Shown piece after piece: positions 1,189 through 56,927 of a DNA stretch of 64,000 bases (the first letter of the stretch is position 1; each line of letters begins with the position of its first letter). The position numbers and the translations under genes were made by a program. Origin of the DNA: an uncultured bacterium (GTDB lineage Bacteria; Chlamydiota; Chlamydiia; Chlamydiales; SM23-39); NCBI GenBank assembly GCA_963716985.1, contig OY970323.1, positions 1,472,001-1,536,000 on the forward strand, in the 5' to 3' direction. The notes beneath the pieces are model-generated. The model did not search any database and had not been told where the DNA came from. It was given only the letters and a program-made list of their open reading frames with translations.

Positions 1189-2943
1189 GCAAGTGCTCAT
1201 AAAACTGAGGTAAAAAACTTTAAGTTTCTTTGAGCCGCGAGGGAGCTCGCGACACGATTACTTGCGACAACCTGGGAATTTTACACAACCCGTTGATTCT
1301 GTCTTCAAGATATCCGAAAAAAGTGATTCCAAGCTTACAGCAAGTCTTTTTTAGGCTTACAAAAGTATCTCGACATTTTTGACCTTCTTCACTACGAGTC
1401 CCTCCGGATACTTTCCGCTTAACCACCATCTCTCGAGCATCGGTTTCGGTTCCATTATTGTGAAGGGGGGTGTCTGGTTTCTCTAATACCCTGAGCAATT
1501 CGTCCTTTTTTTCATAAGTTTTTGCCAGCTGTTTGTTTAGGGTGGGACTGATGGTTTTCTTTTTTGAGAATAAATTGTCAAAATTCTGCTCGAGAATCAA
1601 TTTTAGGCTTTCAGAGGGCGCGAGTTTGTATTCCTGCAGCCCCTTGTATAAATCCCAAATTTCTCCCCGGACTTGCTCGATTGCTTTGCGTGTTGCTTCG
1701 TCAAAGGGAATGAGTTTTCGATAATGCCTCTCCTCATGGATCCAACATAAAGATCGAACGAAGACATTGAATTGCCCTGCATCATCTCCATGCACTCCAA
1801 GATCTCTTGGTATGCCATTTTCTATCAGGCTCGCGAATAGGGCGGCCTCGGTTACAAGTTTTATGTCGCTTTCTGACTTGATGTTTATTGCGAGTAAAAA
1901 TTTCTCCCATTCTATTTGATTCATGGATCGATATCGGGCCTGCAAAAGGAGGTATCCTCCTAACCAACTCGAGGGTTTTAGGGTCTCAATGTAGTCTGCA
2001 GTGTCTTCATTGATAAGATATCGAGGAGCCGTCCCATGCAATATCTTGAGAAAATTTATGCGACTTTTGCTTTCTGTCGACACAATGTAGGTAAAATATT
2101 CGTTCCCTATGATCGTCGAGTAGCCATTATGCCCTCGGTGGCGAGCGCCGGTGTCGTCTACTTTTACTTGTCCTGTAGCTGCTATCCCCGCGGACAATAG
2201 CTCGTTCTTTTCCTGATGGAAGGCTTCCTTTCCTTGGATCAAAATATTGCTCAACTGTCCTTCGGAGATCAATACGCCAATTTCTTTCAACTGTGCAAAC
2301 AGCAGAGGTTCTGTAATACGACAGCCATAATATTGGTGCAAAACGTAGCTGATCAATTGAGGGCCATAATGTCCCTGGATATTTTGCGGCAATTTACCTG
2401 TTAAGTAAGTGCCATCAGGCAATTGCCATCGCTCGAGTTCGTATATGGTATTGTAAGGCTGAAGAATGATGTCCTGTACGGTAAATTTCTGACATCCTTT
2501 GAAGGTAGCTCCTTCGGGAACTGATTCGGGCTTAATGCGACTTCTGGTATGTATCTCAAGTTTTTTGGTTTTTTTACGTCGAGGATGCATCCCCCTGGAG
2601 AGTTTATTTTTGTCGTTTTGCTTATCTTTGCTTTGTTGCCCCTCTAAAGTGCTGGGAGGAATCTTTGGACGGGGCTTTTGTCCCTTGAGAATTGCAATCT
2701 CATCTTTTAGTCGTTGGATTTCTTCGTGCTGAAATGAAATGGTGTTCAAAGCAATGTCGAGGCGATCTCTTAGGCGTCGATCTTCTTCAGCGAGCTGGGT
2801 ATTTTGCTCTAAAATTCGTTGAATGAGGTCATTGTTATTCTGCATAAGCAAGTAAATTTACGATGACGAACGATTAAAGAAAAGATTTATATTTTTTTAG
2901 GATCTAAGAATGAGGTATTTACCTCAACTTTTTGAGCACTTGC
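1189..2943 (-). mobile_element. IS66 family, single-ORF (ISBst12-like) element, copy 1
   Basis: TIRs GCAAGTGCTCATAAAACTGAGGTAAA / GCAAGTGCTCAAAAAGTTGAGGTAAA; 8-bp target duplication AAAACTTC at 1181-1188 and 2944-2951. Confidence 0.92.
1220..2851 (-). CDS. IS66 family transposase (543 aa)
   Basis: N-terminal coiled coil; VDDTG, DDAGQF, LCWIHEERH, PLHNNGTETDAREMVVKRKVSGGTRS motifs. Confidence 0.92.
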   Translation of the reverse strand: MLMQNNNDLIQRILEQNTQLAEEDRRLRDRLDIALNTISFQHEEIQRLKDEIAILKGQKPRPKIPPSTLEGQQSKDKQNDKNKLSRGMHPRRKKTKKLEIHTRSRIKPESVPEGATFKGCQKFTVQDIILQPYNTIYELERWQLPDGTYLTGKLPQNIQGHYGPQLISYVLHQYYGCRITEPLLFAQLKEIGVLISEGQLSNILIQGKEAFHQEKNELLSAGIAATGQVKVDDTGARHRGHNGYSTIIGNEYFTYIVSTESKSRINFLKILHGTAPRYLINEDTADYIETLKPSSWLGGYLLLQARYRSMNQIEWEKFLLAINIKSESDIKLVTEAALFASLIENGIPRDLGVHGDDAGQFNVFVRSLCWIHEERHYRKLIPFDEATRKAIEQVRGEIWDLYKGLQEYKLAPSESLKLILEQNFDNLFSKKKTISPTLNKQLAKTYEKKDELLRVLEKPDTPLHNNGTETDAREMVVKRKVSGGTRSEEGQKCRDTFVSLKKTCCKLGITFFGYLEDRINGLCKIPRLSQVIVSRAPSRLKET

Positions 2944-5962: not shown

Positions 5963-6162
5963 CTAGTGCTCTGTCATAGTTAAAATTTAGGATTATAAGT
6001 TTGGCAACGGTCGGCATAAACTCAAGTCAATTTATCCTAAAATTAAAGAATGGCAGAGCACTAGTGCTCTGTCATAGTTAAAATTTAGGATTATAAGTTT
6101 GGCAACGGTCGGCATAAACTCAAGTCAATTTATCCTAAAATTAAAGGGTGACAGAGCACTAG
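5963..6162. mobile_element. Two tandem copies of a 98-bp CTAG-flanked MITE (IS630-like ends)
   Basis: CTAG at 5963, 6061 and 6159; ends TGCTCTGTCA...TG(A/G)CAGAGCA with ~30-bp imperfect IRs; third copy at 53628. Confidence 0.88.
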
Positions 6163-6787
6163 CAACTTTTCTTGGCTTCTTACATTAGCAGGCGATGATT
6201 TTTTCTTGGCTCACGAGTTTTCGCATTGCTAAGACAAAAAACTCAAATGGCTTCAGCTTGGTTATTTGGGAATGATGGGGATGATGGGGGTAGGCATTTG
6301 GCAACGTGATAAAATAAGCCAGATAGACAGCCGGATAGATAAGGCTATTTTGACCATAGCGGGCCCAACCACCCGAGTATTCATGGAGGTGGGTGCTGCA
6401 TTCTGCGCCGGGATGGCTTTTATCCTTGCTGATACAGCTCTTGACCGAAACAGAGAAGGATTTGCAGATAAAAATGCCTTAAAGTATGTATCCACTCTGG
6501 AAAAGGTCAAAGGCATTGTTACCTTCACCTATTTCCAAAAAAAAGGACATGGACTAGGAGGCATGTTATCCACTCACCCATCTCACAAAAAGCGAATCGA
6601 ATGGATTAGAGAAAGCATTGGACGGGAAAATCTATTTCTTCGCGTCTATGCAAAAGTTCTTTTGGGTTTTTTCATGACTGCCTTGCGTATAAAGCTTTTT
6701 TTCGAAAACGCATCATGCTTGCGGCCTGCTGGCCGAGCTGTCGCGCCTTAAAACATTTCTTATTTCCACAATTATTTCCACAAAGCC

Positions 6788-36437: not shown

Positions 36438-38192
36438 GCAAGTGCTCATAAAACTGAGGTAAAAAACTTTAAGTTTCTTTGAGCCGCGAGGGAGCTCGCG
36501 ACACGATTACTTGCGACAACCTGGGAATTTTACACAACCCGTTGATTCTGTCTTCAAGATATCCGAAAAAAGTGATTCCAAGCTTACAGCAAGTCTTTTT
36601 TAGGCTTACAAAAGTATCTCGACATTTTTGACCTTCTTCACTACGAGTCCCTCCGGATACTTTCCGCTTAACCACCATCTCTCGAGCATCGGTTTCGGTT
36701 CCATTATTGTGAAGGGGGGTGTCTGGTTTCTCTAATACCCTGAGCAATTCGTCCTTTTTTTCATAAGTTTTTGCCAGCTGTTTGTTTAGGGTGGGACTGA
36801 TGGTTTTCTTTTTTGAGAATAAATTGTCAAAATTCTGCTCGAGAATCAATTTTAGGCTTTCAGAGGGCGCGAGTTTGTATTCCTGCAGCCCCTTGTATAA
36901 ATCCCAAATTTCTCCCCGGACTTGCTCGATTGCTTTGCGTGTTGCTTCGTCAAAGGGAATGAGTTTTCGATAATGCCTCTCCTCATGGATCCAACATAAA
37001 GATCGAACGAAGACATTGAATTGCCCTGCATCATCTCCATGCACTCCAAGATCTCTTGGTATGCCATTTTCTATCAGGCTCGCGAATAGGGCGGCCTCGG
37101 TTACAAGTTTTATGTCGCTTTCTGACTTGATGTTTATTGCGAGTAAAAATTTCTCCCATTCTATTTGATTCATGGATCGATATCGGGCCTGCAAAAGGAG
37201 GTATCCTCCTAACCAACTCGAGGGTTTTAGGGTCTCAATGTAGTCTGCAGTGTCTTCATTGATAAGATATCGAGGAGCCGTCCCATGCAATATCTTGAGA
37301 AAATTTATGCGACTTTTGCTTTCTGTCGACACAATGTAGGTAAAATATTCGTTCCCTATGATCGTCGAGTAGCCATTATGCCCTCGGTGGCGAGCGCCGG
37401 TGTCGTCTACTTTTACTTGTCCTGTAGCTGCTATCCCCGCGGACAATAGCTCGTTCTTTTCCTGATGGAAGGCTTCCTTTCCTTGGATCAAAATATTGCT
37501 CAACTGTCCTTCGGAGATCAATACGCCAATTTCTTTCAACTGTGCAAACAGCAGAGGTTCTGTAATACGACAGCCATAATATTGGTGCAAAACGTAGCTG
37601 ATCAATTGAGGGCCATAATGTCCCTGGATATTTTGCGGCAATTTACCTGTTAAGTAAGTGCCATCAGGCAATTGCCATCGCTCGAGTTCGTATATGGTAT
37701 TGTAAGGCTGAAGAATGATGTCCTGTACGGTAAATTTCTGACATCCTTTGAAGGTAGCTCCTTCGGGAACTGATTCGGGCTTAATGCGACTTCTGGTATG
37801 TATCTCAAGTTTTTTGGTTTTTTTACGTCGAGGATGCATCCCCCTGGAGAGTTTATTTTTGTCGTTTTGCTTATCTTTGCTTTGTTGCCCCTCTAAAGTG
37901 CTGGGAGGAATCTTTGGACGGGGCTTTTGTCCCTTGAGAATTGCAATCTCATCTTTTAGTCGTTGGATTTCTTCGTGCTGAAATGAAATGGTGTTCAAAG
38001 CAATGTCGAGGCGATCTCTTAGGCGTCGATCTTCTTCAGCGAGCTGGGTATTTTGCTCTAAAATTCGTTGAATGAGGTCATTGTTATTCTGCATAAGCAA
38101 GTAAATTTACGATGACGAACGATTAAAGAAAAGATTTATATTTTTTTAGGATCTAAGAATGAGGTATTTACCTCAACTTTTTGAGCACTTGC
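36438..38192 (-). mobile_element. IS66 family element, copy 2 (matches 1189-2943)
   Basis: Same TIRs; different 8-bp duplication AAAAAGCA at 36430-36437 and 38193-38200. Confidence 0.92.
36469..38100 (-). CDS. IS66 family transposase (543 aa)
   Basis: Protein identical to 1220-2851. Confidence 0.92.
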   Translation of the reverse strand: MLMQNNNDLIQRILEQNTQLAEEDRRLRDRLDIALNTISFQHEEIQRLKDEIAILKGQKPRPKIPPSTLEGQQSKDKQNDKNKLSRGMHPRRKKTKKLEIHTRSRIKPESVPEGATFKGCQKFTVQDIILQPYNTIYELERWQLPDGTYLTGKLPQNIQGHYGPQLISYVLHQYYGCRITEPLLFAQLKEIGVLISEGQLSNILIQGKEAFHQEKNELLSAGIAATGQVKVDDTGARHRGHNGYSTIIGNEYFTYIVSTESKSRINFLKILHGTAPRYLINEDTADYIETLKPSSWLGGYLLLQARYRSMNQIEWEKFLLAINIKSESDIKLVTEAALFASLIENGIPRDLGVHGDDAGQFNVFVRSLCWIHEERHYRKLIPFDEATRKAIEQVRGEIWDLYKGLQEYKLAPSESLKLILEQNFDNLFSKKKTISPTLNKQLAKTYEKKDELLRVLEKPDTPLHNNGTETDAREMVVKRKVSGGTRSEEGQKCRDTFVSLKKTCCKLGITFFGYLEDRINGLCKIPRLSQVIVSRAPSRLKET

Positions 38193-51920: not shown

Positions 51921-53141
51921 CTATCTCTTTCCAAAAATCGCAAGAGCATGAAAATCTGCCAATAATTGCAAAGCAATCAGAATCAGCCCGGTCAAAAAGA
52001 TCACTCCCAAAAGAAGGTTTCCTCCCCTTACCCGATAAGGCGACTCAATCTTTTTCTTTCTGAGACGAAAGACCATCCAAGCGGGCAACACTACATGGGA
52101 AAAGGCCACGCAAATCGCTGCTTTGCCAAGCGCTAAAATGAAACCCTTTGGATAGAAGAAAGCAAATAGAGCCGGAGGAACAAAGGTAAAAAAAGCAATC
52201 GATCCCCTTCCCGAAAGTCTTTTTTGCTTCTTAAAAAAATCAGCTAAAAAATTAAAAAGACCTAAACTGACCCCCAGAAAACAGGTGGTCACTGTGATGT
52301 TGGCAAAGCCGTGAATAGCACTTTCAATCCACTTGTTTTTCAAAAAGGAAGAAAACATGAGCACAAACTCTCCCACAGATCCTTTTTGCAAAGCGAGTTG
52401 CAAAAAACCATCCAGGGGCACAACGCCCATCGTGACTGCCAGCCAAAAAAGATAGAGGACCAGCGTCAAAAAACTACCCCAAAAAAGCACGAATTTTAAC
52501 TGCTTTTTTTCATAATGCAAATACTGGCCCAGCACAGGAATTAAAATGTGGTAGCCAAAAGCACAAAGAAAAATGGGAGCCGCCGCCCACAGATACTTGC
52601 TCGAATGATTGGAAAACGTTAACAGATGTACGTCCACTTTCTGCAAAGAAAGGCCAATGAACAAAATCAAAAGCAGTCCCTTCAAACTAAAGAAAAAGCG
52701 ATTTAAATAATCCACCGCTTGAATTCCATGAAAAACGACAAGCCCAAAGAGGGCGACAAAGAGCAAACTACAGGATTCGCTCGACAGATGGATCTGCATC
52801 TGTTGGAATAATTCATTCAATAAAGACCCTCCCGCAGAAACATACGCGGCAACTAAAGCATAGAGAAGAATCAGATAGCTCAGTACAGTTGCCACCTTTC
52901 CTGGATTTCCCAGCGTTAGAAATGCCATGGAAGAAAAATTGGTTTTGGAAAAGGGAAATGCTAAATTCACTTCTAAAAAAAGAAAACCCGTGATCAGCAT
53001 CAAAAGCCACATAAAGATAAGCAAACAGGAGGCAGCGAAAAAACTTACTCCCGCACTGACCAGAGGAATTGCTAATATCCCTCCTCCTATCAGTGTGCCC
53101 ATGAGAAGAAATACACTTCCGATCATTTTACCGAATTGCAT
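51921..53141 (-). CDS. Aromatic amino acid permease (TyrP/Mtr family)
   Basis: GTLIGGGILAIP, AFGYH, TTCFLGVSLGL; ~11 TM segments. Confidence 0.9.
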   Translation of the reverse strand: MQFGKMIGSVFLLMGTLIGGGILAIPLVSAGVSFFAASCLLIFMWLLMLITGFLFLEVNLAFPFSKTNFSSMAFLTLGNPGKVATVLSYLILLYALVAAYVSAGGSLLNELFQQMQIHLSSESCSLLFVALFGLVVFHGIQAVDYLNRFFFSLKGLLLILFIGLSLQKVDVHLLTFSNHSSKYLWAAAPIFLCAFGYHILIPVLGQYLHYEKKQLKFVLFWGSFLTLVLYLFWLAVTMGVVPLDGFLQLALQKGSVGEFVLMFSSFLKNKWIESAIHGFANITVTTCFLGVSLGLFNFLADFFKKQKRLSGRGSIAFFTFVPPALFAFFYPKGFILALGKAAICVAFSHVVLPAWMVFRLRKKKIESPYRVRGGNLLLGVIFLTGLILIALQLLADFHALAIFGKR

Positions 53142-53203
53142 AGAACCTCAGTTTTTTGTTTTTTCAACTTCAGATTAAAAATAGTAAATAAAAAATGATG
53201 GCT

Positions 53204-53338
53204 TCAAGGAGAGTACTGGCTCAAGCGCCAGTAATAATGAGAAAAACAAAGAGAACGGAACCTATGCCCACAAGAATGGGGCAGGTGTTCAACGAGATGG
53301 TGTGTAAATTCTAATGATTCAGAATGGATCATCAACAT
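53204..53338 (-). CDS. Possible leader peptide (44 aa) upstream of the permease
   Basis: MLMIHSESLEFTHHLVEHLPHSCGHRFRSLCFSHYYWRLSQYSP; YYWR overlaps hairpin TACTGGC/GCCAGTA. Confidence 0.35.
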   Translation of the reverse strand: MLMIHSESLEFTHHLVEHLPHSCGHRFRSLCFSHYYWRLSQYSP

Positions 53339-53404
53339 ATCTTACGACTTTTTGCAACTGCTTCTAAATAAGTTCACATGTGGGTCTCCTGTCCATGGTT
53401 ACAC

Positions 53405-53580
53405 AAACTTTCTTTAAACTTGCTCATCACTCTATACTGCGCACTCTTCTAAAACGGGATGATCGTCGGTCTTACGACAAACGATCTCACCAATGATGTT
53501 ATCGGTGATGATGCAGACCAAGCTCATAATCGGGCGTTTAGCACCAATGCATTTCCGGCCTTTAAAGTCGTTGAAAGTTT
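53405..53580 (-). ncRNA. Putative IS110 bridge/seek RNA (~176 nt)
   Basis: Closing stem AAACTTTC..CTTTAAA / TTTAAAGAAAGTTT, two internal hairpins, and guide-like CCCGA-TTATGAGC (target) and CCCGT-TTTAGAAG (own end). Confidence 0.7.
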
Positions 53581-53627
53581 GCTTGATTACCTGTAAGTTT
53601 TAGTTGATTTTTGTTTTTAGCAAGCTA

Positions 53628-53729
53628 CTAGTGCTCTGTCATAGTTAAAATTTAGGATTATAAGTTTGGCAACGGTCGGCATAAACTCAAGTCAATTTAT
53701 CCTAAAATTAAAGGGTGACAGAGCACTAG
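53628..53729. mobile_element. 98-bp CTAG MITE, third copy, in the 3' end of the IS110 recombinase gene
   Basis: Matches 6061-6162; CTAG at 53628 and 53726. Confidence 0.9.
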
Positions 53730-55124
53730 CCCATATCCTAGTTCTCGTGCTCGTTTCTGCAATGACAATAGCTGTCTTTCTTTATATGCCTGTTCGTATG
53801 CAGCTTGTCCAACTTCTGTAAAATTTTTGCGCTCTTTCAGCATCGTATACAGAATTTTTGCAAGTTTATGTGCTGCCGCTGTGATCGCTTTTGGAGCACC
53901 GAGTCTTGCTCGCATCCTACGAAAATAGGCGCCAAGGGCTGTTTTGGAGCGGTAAAGGGCATTGGCTGCTAAGCGTAATGCTTGTGCTGCCCTGTTGGCA
54001 GTTGGCTTGGTCTTGCCGCTCAAAATCTTGCCACCGGAAATCTTGTTGCCGGGACAAAGCCCAAGCCAAGAAGCGAAATGTTTCGCACTCGGCCATTTGG
54101 ACATATCCATGCCAATCTCTCCTAGAATTTTTATAATCCCATTCACGTCCAGTCCGGGAATGTCAGTCAAGTTGACGTGAAGAATTCTTTCGAGAGAACC
54201 TTCTGCTTCAAAGTGATATGGACTGAGGTTGTATTTCGTCTTTTTCTGTGTTCCTCGCCCATTTTTACTTGAATGTTCTGCAGGAGTCGATCTTGGAGCC
54301 GGCATATTTTTTTTCGGTTGCGCTTCTTCCCATTTCTTCAGTACTTGCTCTATAGCCTCTTCGCACTCCAAAGCCTGTTGATGGAAAAAATCATAAGCTG
54401 CAAGAGCGTGTTTCAGCGCCAGTAGATGTTCCTCTCGATAGTTGCCATCGAGAGCTTTTGCAATTTCTTTTTCATCTTTTTTGCATCGAGGATCTCGATA
54501 TTTTGCTAAGACTAAGGGAGATCGTTCTCCAGAGACAATCGCTCGTATAATATTCATGCCTGTAGCGCCCGTAATGTCACTCACTACGTGATTGAGTTGG
54601 AGATTCATTTGCACGAGGGCTTTGTGCATCAATTGCACCTGCTGAGAGGCCAATTCAAATAAACGGCTTCTCTGCCTCACATATCCGCGAAGTATGACTC
54701 CTTCATCATCGGGACGAAATGATCCTCTAAGTAATCCGTAGGCGTGTAATTGTTGGATCCATTGGCAATCTTTTACATCGGTTTTTCTACCCGGGACTGT
54801 TTTGAGGTAATATGCATTTACCAATATGACATCTATCCCTGCCTGAGCCAAGATATCGTAAACCGGAATCCAGTATACTCCGGTAGATTCCATTGCTACG
54901 CTCCGGATCTCATTCTGTTGGATCCAGGACAGCATGTTCTTGAGATCCTCTGTGAAGGTTAAATACTCGCGTATTTCTTGGTGCCCATCGGGAAAACCGA
55001 TACAAATGAATACAGAGCTGGCTCCAATGTCTATACCGGCAACACACGGATTTATGGGAGCCAATCTAAAATTAGATGCAGATGCAGGTTGAGTTTTTGG
55101 ATATTTTTTGGTATTTTTTTTCAT
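53697..55124 (-). CDS. IS110 family DEDD recombinase (transposase)
   Basis: AGIDIG, MESTGVYW, GRKTDVKD, SWLGLCPGNKISGGK, AAAHKLAK; ATG 55124 with RBS AGAGG. Confidence 0.95.
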   Translation of the reverse strand: MKKNTKKYPKTQPASASNFRLAPINPCVAGIDIGASSVFICIGFPDGHQEIREYLTFTEDLKNMLSWIQQNEIRSVAMESTGVYWIPVYDILAQAGIDVILVNAYYLKTVPGRKTDVKDCQWIQQLHAYGLLRGSFRPDDEGVILRGYVRQRSRLFELASQQVQLMHKALVQMNLQLNHVVSDITGATGMNIIRAIVSGERSPLVLAKYRDPRCKKDEKEIAKALDGNYREEHLLALKHALAAYDFFHQQALECEEAIEQVLKKWEEAQPKKNMPAPRSTPAEHSSKNGRGTQKKTKYNLSPYHFEAEGSLERILHVNLTDIPGLDVNGIIKILGEIGMDMSKWPSAKHFASWLGLCPGNKISGGKILSGKTKPTANRAAQALRLAANALYRSKTALGAYFRRMRARLGAPKAITAAAHKLAKILYTMLKERKNFTEVGQAAYEQAYKERQLLSLQKRARELGYGLVLCHPLILG

Positions 55125-55464
55125 GACAAACCTCTTTAGTTGATGTTGTTTCAAATAATCGCGTCGATCATTCTACAGAGGTTTGTCATTTTTTGGGGGT
55201 TTTACCGTATTCTTGTGACCTCACTTATTTTTAGATGTTGCCAGAGACACAGTCCCGGTGAGGAGCTCATAAAGTTGAGGTAAATCCCAATTTTTGGGCT
55301 TTAAGCAACGGTTTATCCATAGAGGACGGAAGCGTTCAAAAAAAGTTTACGCCTCAACTTTATGAGCAGTTGCACTTTTTAGGTATTTTACTCTAAAGTG
55401 AAAAAAAAACAAGGCAGAAAAAAAGAACTCGAACATTTTGATCACTCAATTTGAACGGAGTCAA

Positions 55465-55835
55465 TCAGATCCGGTTTGTGGAATAAATAGCTCCTGGATT
55501 CTCAATAAATTTAGAAACCATTGTAAACTCCCCTTCTCCCTCCTGGGTTAAAGTAACGACCACTTTCTTTGGATAAGAAATAGCTGAAATATGAGTGCCT
55601 CCACAGGGGATTATTGCTTTTCTTCCATCGGGAAATGCGCAATGCCATTCCCTTTTTTCGTGCATATATGCCGTATCAGGAACTACAGATATTTTTATTC
55701 CCTTAGGATGAGCACACCAGTCTAGAAGCTGTTGATTGATATTTGCTTCAACTTGCTTGAATTCAGATTCGCTAAAAAATGCAATACCGTCAAATCCCTC
55801 CTTCCTAAGAGATTTTCCGCATCGATAACGATAGA
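55465..55835 (-). pseudogene. C-terminal fragment of an alanyl-tRNA-editing-like metal-dependent hydrolase
   Basis: YRCGKSLRKEGFD...INQQLLDW...REWHC...IPCGGTH; in-frame stop just upstream, N-terminus absent. Confidence 0.6.
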
Positions 55836-55904
55836 ATACCCATGTTGCATAACCTTAAAAACTTCGCAGCCGCGAGCTTTTCAGTCTTTTTAAAAAGTCT
55901 GTTT

Positions 55905-56927
<1,023 letters not shown>

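Follow-up and report, generated by a model that had tools for sequence, protein, structure and literature searches.

What decides where an insertion sequence (IS) of the IS110 family lands, and can another mobile element be its regular target? This question is raised by a locus in a 64,000-nt stretch of DNA from an uncultured bacterium of the Chlamydiota (Chlamydiales, SM23-39; GenBank assembly GCA_963716985.1, contig OY970323.1, forward-strand positions 1,472,001 to 1,536,000), hereafter called the window and numbered from its first letter, in which a 1905-bp IS110-family element splits one terminal repeat of a 115-bp miniature inverted-repeat transposable element (MITE). We consider it very probable that this element is an autonomous IS that was guided by a bridge (seeker) RNA into a repeat shared by the MITE and an IS66-like transposon. 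RNA-programmed insertion into the terminal repeat of this IS66-like MITE is, as judged from the sequence, well supported. The features of the locus are as follows.

53347..53353, no strand: left copy of the MITE flanking duplication, ACTTTTT, 7 bp in common with the right copy
53354..53362, plus strand: outer 9 bp of the split left repeat, GCAACTGCT, the final CT being the recombination core
53363..55267, minus strand: IS110-family element, 1905 bp, one of four genomic copies
53363..53627, minus strand: right-end non-coding region 3' of the transposase gene, encoding the predicted bridge RNA (from alignments and a consensus structure)
53446..53453, minus strand: donor guide, UUUAGAAG in RNA, equal to the right-end terminus TTTAGA plus the core AG
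53522..53529, minus strand: target loop, 3' side; RNA sequence UUAUGAGC, the same as the 5 nt that end the left flank followed by AG(C)
53548..53554, minus strand: target loop, 5' side; RNA sequence AAAUGCA, the complement of the core G and of the adjoining right flank
53628..53725, no strand: inner 98-bp MITE with 31-nt inverted arms, position uncertain by a few nt
53697..55124, minus strand: transposase gene, 475 amino acids from ATG, with DEDD_Tnp_IS110 and Transposase_20 domains
55125..55267, minus strand: left-end non-coding region, beginning AGCTCCTCACCGGG in the transposase sense
55268..55373, plus strand: remainder of the 115-bp MITE, made up of the inner 13 bp left from the split repeat, a 71-bp interior and the right repeat
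55352..55373: intact right MITE repeat, an unoccupied predicted target
55374..55380, no strand: right copy of the MITE flanking duplication, ACTTTTT

An IS110-family element in a split terminal repeat

The split repeat can be read directly from the window. The left copy of the flanking duplication (ACTTTTT, 53347-53353) is followed by the outer part of the left terminal repeat (GCAACTGCT, 53354-53362), and the inner part (CATAAAGTTGAGG, 55268-55280) lies on the far side of the IS. Excising 53363-55267 fuses GCAACTGCT to CATAAAGTTGAGG, and the resulting 22-bp repeat is the exact inverse of 55352-55373, after which ACTTTTT recurs at 55374-55380. The initial annotation of this DNA had proposed just such a 115-bp MITE, and two uninterrupted copies do exist elsewhere in the same genome, a single contig of 2.07 Mb (G000:C1:1911929-1912043 and G000:C1:1943670-1943784); they are 100% identical and both carry 8-bp target duplications (2/2). 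The duplication flanking the MITE of the window comprises only 7 bp, compared with 8 bp for other copies of the 115-bp MITE, including the one (TGGTATTG) that holds the second IS copy described below.

By its sequence, the element at 53363-55267 is a member of the IS110 family. Its transposase matched Pfam DEDD_Tnp_IS110 (PF01548; E 3.7e-18; 66 bits, cut-off 29) and Transposase_20 (PF02371; E 1.3e-11) as well as NCBIfam NF033542, "IS110 family RNA-guided transposase" (245.8 bits against a cut-off of 140). Residues D32, E79, D116, and D119, which from their pattern we take to be the DEDD tetrad, are invariant across 17 relatives, as are G355, P358, S363, and G364 of a G..P....SG motif. Such a C-terminal motif is described for the family in the available text of PMC11187229. 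CT on the plus strand of the window is the core dinucleotide at both junctions in all four copies; because CT or GCT stands at both junctions, the boundary of the IS is ambiguous, by 2-3 nt. Among 25 of the 45 inverted-repeat pairs listed, there was neither a terminal inverted repeat of the element nor an IS1111-type subterminal inverted repeat between its ends. The IS1111 subgroup is defined, in the portion of PMC11187229 available, by subterminal inverted repeats of ~11-13 bp. At 475 amino acids, the transposase is also outside the 330-350 amino acids of that subgroup. Because it has no subterminal repeats and a 475-amino acid protein, the element is not a member of IS1111. It does share one trait with IS1111, a long non-coding region that follows the gene and encodes the RNA; in the closest relatives within the range of 45-52% identity, the RNA precedes the gene, which is the arrangement of the IS110 group.

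The nesting has a third level, as the initial annotation had claimed: the inner MITE of 98 bp is a separate arrival, exactly these 98 bp being absent from two sibling IS copies. Its insertion point is the stop codon of the transposase gene, so that the C terminus changed from ...LVAC to ...LVLCHPLILG, and one joint in a metagenome contig that skips the 98 bp represents the MITE-free form of the element. A BLAST search of the genome returned 32 matches to this MITE (29 near full length and three fragments). Two adjacent, overlapping copies lie at 5963-6163 of the window, and several of the genomic matches form such pairs.

Guides in the predicted RNA and the sites of insertion

The host genome holds four copies of the IS110 element, and we compared each with its own insertion site. 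The window copy and copy c2 (G000:C1:414416-416320) are 100% identical over 1905 bp, inner MITE included, and each splits a 115-bp MITE at the same position. It could be argued from this identity, and from the fact that each of the two MITEs has its own duplication, that the IS entered one MITE only once and that the IS66-like transposase then moved the composite to a second locus. A moved composite would, however, have kept its arrangement, whereas the IS lies in the left repeat at one locus and in the right repeat at the other, relative to the MITE interior; the two MITEs, further, have different flanking duplications. We therefore conclude that these are two separate insertions, and we regard a single insertion as extremely unlikely. 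The other two copies are not in a MITE repeat: c3, which is without the inner MITE, lies within or just upstream of a small flavodoxin-like open reading frame (ORF), and c4, which is interrupted by a canonical IS66, lies in unique intergenic DNA. Both are flanked by unique, non-IS DNA without GCTCATAA.

GCTCATAA is the sequence that the initial annotation had singled out as a guide, and it corresponds to the 3' side of the predicted target loop. It is present at 53522-53529 and at three predicted targets, and on its own it is not rare (five occurrences in the window against 2.0 expected). The region 3' of the gene is nearly identical among the four copies and differs at few positions. The window copy and c2 have the guide TTATGAGC and the left flank cTTTATG followed by AGC (5 nt, TTATG); c3 has the guide TTATAAGC and the left flank cCTTATA followed by AGC (TTATA); and c4 has the guide TTCAGAGC and the left flank aTTTCAG followed by AGC (TTCAG). 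Each of TTATGAG, TTATAAG, and TTCAGAG is thus the last 5 nt of the copy's own left flank plus the AG core. The initial annotation had expected the flanks of all copies to align and had counted copies in unrelated sequence lacking GCTCATAA against its proposal. Two of the four copies do lie in the repeat and two lie in exactly such unique DNA, which, taken literally, goes against it; yet the two exceptions still favour RNA guidance because the guides of c3 and c4 match their own flanks.

The agreement extends to relatives from genome and metagenome collections, which share a scaffold consisting of aggccgg, 7 variable nt, ttggtgc..gcccg., 8 variable nt, and ttggtc. In L041, L121, L122, L124, L131, L132, L134, and L137, all five variable guide nt equal the left flank, so that, with the four local copies included, guide and left flank agree in 12/12 informative close elements representing 10 different guides; L123, the left flank of which is the right end of another copy, was excluded from this tally. 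As a family-wide control, we took 111 distinct elements with a scaffold found by regular expression and looked for the 7-mer of each element's own guide in the 400 nt upstream of the scaffold. There were 70 matches, in 65 of the 111 elements, with 62 of them clustering at 70-119 nt, compared with 3.5 matches per shuffle when the guides were shuffled among the elements. Since the guides of c3 and c4 carry changes that match their own flanks, these results strengthen the view that the predicted RNA directs target choice. They also show a specificity that is subject to drift and not bound to IS66, because two of the four copies occupy unique, non-IS sites.

The same comparisons bear on the possibility that the protein recognizes the structure of the palindromic MITE (as a hairpin or cruciform) and that the guide match is coincidental. 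The targets of the window copy, c2, L122, and L041 all lie in inverted repeats, and for another IS110 element a logic of dual match, to sequence and to structure, has been put forward in the available text of a recent preprint. Against this, c3 and c4 lie in unique, non-palindromic DNA, and guide and flank covary in 12/12 close elements and far above the control in 111 relatives. We consider recognition by structure with a coincidental guide improbable, and guidance by the RNA remains the reading that we prefer.

The opposite side of the loop reads the right flank less strictly. The right-flank match was 4/5 for the window copy (MITE repeat), 5/5 for L122, and 2/5 for both c3 and c4. Across 32 elements, the 5' loop agreed with the right flank at frequencies of 0.56 and 0.41 at the two core-adjacent positions, compared with 0.25 in the shuffled control, and a hand tally of 15 downstream-type rows gave 13/15 and 9/15 at the same positions; for upstream-RNA relatives this scoring is noisy, their right ends having been estimated from the donor guide, in several cases clearly wrongly. 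A "TGCA" match between the 5' loop and the flank at an offset was not accepted, c2 being without it. Four variants of the donor guide (TTTAGAAG, TTTAGGAG, TTTGAAAG, and TTTGGAAG) change in step with the right end, the conserved stretch TTTAGAAG being the right terminus plus AG. Two candidates for a right-donor guide, GGUGAG (the complement of left-end CTCACC) and GAGCA, were discarded; neither covaries with the left end in relatives.

The region encoding the predicted bridge RNA contains the target loop, two hairpins, and the donor guide and ends ...TTATTTAGA in the transposase sense. RNAalifold analysis of 17 sequences gave a consensus of 27 pairs, eight of which show compensatory changes; it comprises the stem that closes the loop, one inner hairpin, and another two hairpins. 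Several pairs are G-U in 17/17 sequences and would be A-C mismatches on the other strand; because these invariant pairs form only in the transposase sense, we place the RNA in that sense. The scaffold lies upstream of the gene in relatives of 45-52% identity (L042-L120 and L140-L200) and downstream in the clade of at least 53% identity (L041 and L121-L139), to which this element belongs, and the donor junction therefore seems to have switched sides of the RNA gene within one protein family. L045 and L053 each have two scaffolds ~1611 nt apart. L123:1-2334 has a head-to-tail junction in which ...GAACTTATTTAGA is followed directly by AGCTCCTCACC; because the two flanking copies differ by 1 nt, this is a tandem and no proof of a circle. 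The target guide of L123, CTAGAAG, is one base off its own right end, TTAGAAG, which could explain a tandem insertion.

We propose that a DEDD transposase acts with a predicted bridge RNA, encoded downstream of its gene in the same sense, that would be expressed and then bound by the transposase. One internal loop would read the target, its 3' side (UUAUGAG) repeating the AG core together with the 5 nt that precede the insertion point on the left and its 5' side (AAAUGC) pairing with the core G and the next nt on the right, and the second guide, UUUAGAAG, would read the element's own right end. Together, the two target guides would specify ..TTATG-AG-CA.TT.., which in this genome occurs almost only in the 115-bp MITE repeats and at one end of each IS66-like element; because it is nearly confined to those repeats, the element has entered such a repeat, at a depth of 9 bp, in two independent events. 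Siblings with a guide drifted by 1-3 nt went to unique sites that fit the new guide. Transposition may proceed via a circle, the junction of which would read ...TTATTTAGA-AG-CTCCTCACC.

The terminal repeat as a target and the IS66-like family

The repeat into which the IS inserted also occurs at the ends of two larger elements in the window.

1189..2943, minus strand: single-ORF IS66-like element, 1755 bp, with a 543-amino acid transposase and the 8-bp duplication AAAACTTC
36438..38192, minus strand: second IS66-like copy, identical to the first

A degenerate pattern of the repeat matched the window six times (at 1189, 2922, 8121 with three mismatches, 36438, 38171, and 55352), compared with 0.01 matches expected from shuffles, and four of the six are both ends of both 1755-bp elements (1189-2943 and 36438-38192). 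Read by eye, 27 of the first 30 nt agree between the MITE end and the IS66-like right end, and the resemblance to the terminal repeats at 1189 and 36438 seen in the initial annotation is thus upheld. Because the ends agree to this extent and both kinds of element make 8-bp duplications, the 115-bp MITE was, on sequence grounds, plausibly mobilized by the IS66-like transposase. Three unoccupied targets had been predicted, at ~1195, ~36444, and ~55365; all three carry the full predicted target, the first two within the IS66-like ends at 1189-1210 and 36438-36459, which are unoccupied.

We use "IS66-like" as the safe name because the transposase is under the NCBIfam IS66 cut-off (96 bits against 180); it passes that of Pfam PF03050 (DDE_Tnp_IS66; 56.4 bits against 23.1), over profile positions 148-282 only. 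The element has one 543-amino acid ORF in 1755 bp and is without the accessory tnpA and tnpB of canonical IS66; a single-ORF, ISBst12-like subgroup also exists. A canonical multi-ORF IS66 with different repeats (GTAAGCG...) is present elsewhere in the same genome. By BLAST of the genome, five intact IS66-like copies are 99.8-100% identical to one another, and the family has therefore been recently active. The 8-bp duplications are perfect in five of the six full-length copies, and those of the sixth, which is interrupted by an intron, agree at 7/8 positions. This sixth copy (G000:C1:1121411-1125080) is broken at its position 1252-1254 by ~1.9 kb (1122664-1124577) encoding a 486-amino acid reverse-transcriptase-like ORF, probably a group II intron.

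We next consider how specifically this repeat is targeted. When the TTATGAGC sites listed are read by eye, the pattern given by both guides together, TTATGAGCA.TT, is found unoccupied at six intact MITE repeats, seven IS66-like ends (of the CATAAAAC type), and two or three other places; the opposite IS66-like end differs from the 5-nt guide part at one position. Occupied sites number two of the eight MITE repeats and none of the seven matching IS66-like ends, and the guides do not tell the two kinds of site apart. Independent support for targeting of this repeat comes from L122, a 1953-bp metagenome contig in which a transposase of 87% identity lies in the same repeat sequence: its site reads CTCAACTTTATG-AG-CAGTTGCAC, and its loops, AACTGC and TTATGAG, fit fully. 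Two further observations concern similar sites. L041:950-2900, an 87%-identical relative in a metagenome-assembled genome (MAG) of the Chlamydiae, lies in one arm of a ~170-bp palindromic element with arms TATACCCAAACAACTTCAAAAGTTGGCCAA. In the host genome, ~15 sites (for example, at G000:C1 positions 73295 and 503713) are a repeated coding sequence with CTCTTATGAGCACAGATCC, all unoccupied; there the 3' guide matches fully and the 5' guide at 2/5, the same level as at the site of c3.

A number of points weigh against the account given above. First, the 8-mer TTATGAGC occurs at 76 sites in the genome compared with 75 expected, and because it is not enriched, specificity for the repeat rests on the second guide of 5-6 nt, which has one mismatch in the window copy. 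The pairing of the 5' loop is short and loose, with only 2/5 in c3 and c4, and the difference in occupancy between MITE and IS66-like ends has no meaning because there were only two events. Second, the bridge RNA is predicted from DNA sequence, and the sequencing runs listed for this DNA include none of RNA. Single-sequence minimum-free-energy folding of the non-coding region, on both strands, was not better than shuffles (z -0.37), and an Rfam scan of 52500-56500 with E up to 1 gave no fitting model; a match to mir-255 (E 0.52), in a hairpin upstream of the start codon, was rejected as chance. Among the candidates considered, there was no convincing right-donor guide. Third, the inner MITE is situated between the transposase gene and the RNA and could affect expression.

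The claim that this IS110 is programmed against IS66 repeats stands for the MITE repeat and for one end of each IS66-like copy, but does not stand as a fixed tie to IS66, since the specificity drifts. The initial annotation went further and had the IS parasitize and immobilize a proliferating IS66 family, which amounts to a dedicated hyperparasite, its lineage kept in being by attacking the IS66-like family and its guide tracking the family's repeats. Such a history would fit the window copy, c2, and L122, which entered one repeat sequence independently and at an identical position; it would also fit L122 by itself, which has kept that target, and matches it better, although its protein has diverged by 13%. 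The near confinement of TTATGAGCA.TT to these repeats, as read by eye, and the position of L041 (Chlamydiae MAG) in an arm of a long palindromic repeat point the same way, and IS4321 and IS5075 are said to set a precedent in the repeats of the Tn21 family. As for the IS66-like family itself, though, none of its seven matching ends is occupied, its five intact copies (99.8-100% identical) were recently active, and only the non-autonomous MITE was hit, at two of eight repeats. Two of the four IS110 copies have moved away from the target after 1-3 guide changes, other members of the clade have unrelated targets, and a safe-harbour habit would explain targeting of the repeat equally well. Immobilization of the family is not supported by these data, and we regard dedicated hyperparasitism as rather unlikely. 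For the MITE that was struck, by analogy with IS4321/IS5075 in Tn21 repeats, splitting of the repeat 9 bp from its tip can reasonably be expected to disable that MITE end.

We offer more tentatively, as a possibility that falls well short of being probable, that the terminal repeat of the IS66-like transposon was the ancestral specificity, kept in at least two hosts or strains (the present one and that of the 87%-identical metagenomic relative with its perfectly matching guide), that guides of siblings drifted to unique sites, and that the donor junction moved, which put the bridge RNA behind the gene. If true, this would represent lasting parasitism of one transposon on another, with single-nucleotide loop drift caught in the act of releasing siblings within one genome.

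Some of these loci are nested further. The c4 locus (G000:C1:853672-856536) holds a multi-ORF IS66 with repeats GTAACCGTCTAATCTA and GTAAGCGTCTAATCTA and a 520-amino acid transposase. This IS66 has the 98-bp MITE close to one of its ends; as it breaks c4, an IS66-family element has also inserted into the IS110 element. At the c2 locus (G000:C1:413500-416900; L040/L031), the 115-bp MITE lies inside the N-terminal codons of another IS110-family transposase gene (35% identical), and the end of a canonical IS66 lies downstream of the remaining coding part of this disrupted gene, which makes four to five levels of nesting with the 98-bp MITE counted. At G000:C1:1579719-1579777, 60 nt of the IS110 right end (95% identity) stand alone, with AGGGTATTCG after them, as a relic of a fifth, deleted copy.

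A protein search of 40 related genomes found relatives in only one other genome, with a best identity of 51%, and the left junction (repeat plus IS start, with up to one mismatch) was not found in 400 genomes of the same order, many of them incomplete; two one-mismatch matches were dismissed as chance, there being no IS left end after them and no RNA scaffold. Contigs from four metagenome runs (four studies) compared with the window region showed the flanks of c2, c3, and c4 and, among the loose ends listed, no new insertion site. One metagenome contig skips the 1905 bp, with only 40 nt on its shorter side; because those 40 nt may derive from the two intact MITEs elsewhere, it is not assignable to the window locus.

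Relation to known elements

Partridge and Hall reportedly described in 2003 that IS4321 and IS5075, of the IS1111 group, target the 38-bp terminal repeats of Tn21-family transposons. The initial annotation had drawn this comparison, and it holds for the habit: here, too, an IS occupies one fixed position and orientation within the terminal inverted repeat of another element and splits it. It does not hold for the type of element, which is not IS1111, since there are no 11-13-bp subterminal repeats and the protein has 475 rather than 330-350 amino acids. Further, the target is an IS66-like MITE and not a Tn3-family transposon, and the setting is an environmental Chlamydiae-like genome and not enterobacterial plasmids.

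The closest mechanistic parallels are found among elements with a described guide RNA. In the bridge RNA of IS621, according to the available text of Durrant et al. (2024, PMC11208160), each side of a loop pairs with a different strand and both sides include the core. Compared with IS621 and the IS110 group as described there, our element has the same combination of a DEDD transposase with a PF02371 C-terminal domain (PMC11208160), a predicted structured non-coding RNA with target loop sides that would pair with opposite strands flanking the core dinucleotide, a second guide set for the element's ends, and a core that is CT when read along the guides; both have neither terminal inverted repeats nor a classical target duplication. 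Unlike in that description of IS621, the RNA here is downstream of the gene and not at the left end, the transposase has ~475 amino acids, and our knowledge of the RNA comes from sequence; the left-flank match is on the 3' loop side (in the transposase sense), and the guide to the right flank is a short one, of 2-5 nt in addition to the core G.

The portion of Siddiquee et al. (2024, PMC11187229) available describes natural redirection between seekRNA elements (ISEc11/ISXne4 and ISEc21/ISMch6) that are ~72% identical. As in those related elements, the target here has been redirected by changes in the target-matching parts of the RNA, and the complement of the top strand lies 5' of that of the bottom strand, an order of the IS1111 type in that text (PMC11187229). 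A minority of IS110-type elements have, as here, a downstream non-coding region (PMC11187229, same portion). In contrast to the pairs described there, redirection here has occurred within one genome, by changes of 1-3 nt between copies that are 94-99% identical in protein and 97-99% identical in DNA. ISPpu9, ISPpu10, and other IS110-family elements insert into repetitive extragenic palindromic (REP) sequences (available text of PMC12288879 and of a 2026 preprint). Landing in short, repeated, palindromic, non-coding DNA is common to ISPpu9/ISPpu10 (PMC12288879) and our element, although, as far as these texts describe the former, our element lands in a repeat that functions as the end of a MITE or an IS66-like mobile element and not in a host REP. 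A limited literature search, which is no proof of absence, found no published IS110-family element that targets IS66-type repeats.

Overall, we conclude that the element is a well-supported yet fairly ordinary new example of a known habit of its family, because natural redirection and the targeting of repeats have already been published for the family, and knowledge of the IS110 family is unchanged by this locus. Its value is as a clean natural illustration of programmable RNA-guided transposition, in which three guide variants in one genome are each at their own predicted site and one of them is directed to an end that belongs to a different mobile element. With a 475-amino acid transposase, a predicted RNA of ~200 nt, and a set of natural targets and near-targets, it also represents a compact test system that could address how many right-flank pairs are needed and whether splitting a terminal repeat silences a MITE.

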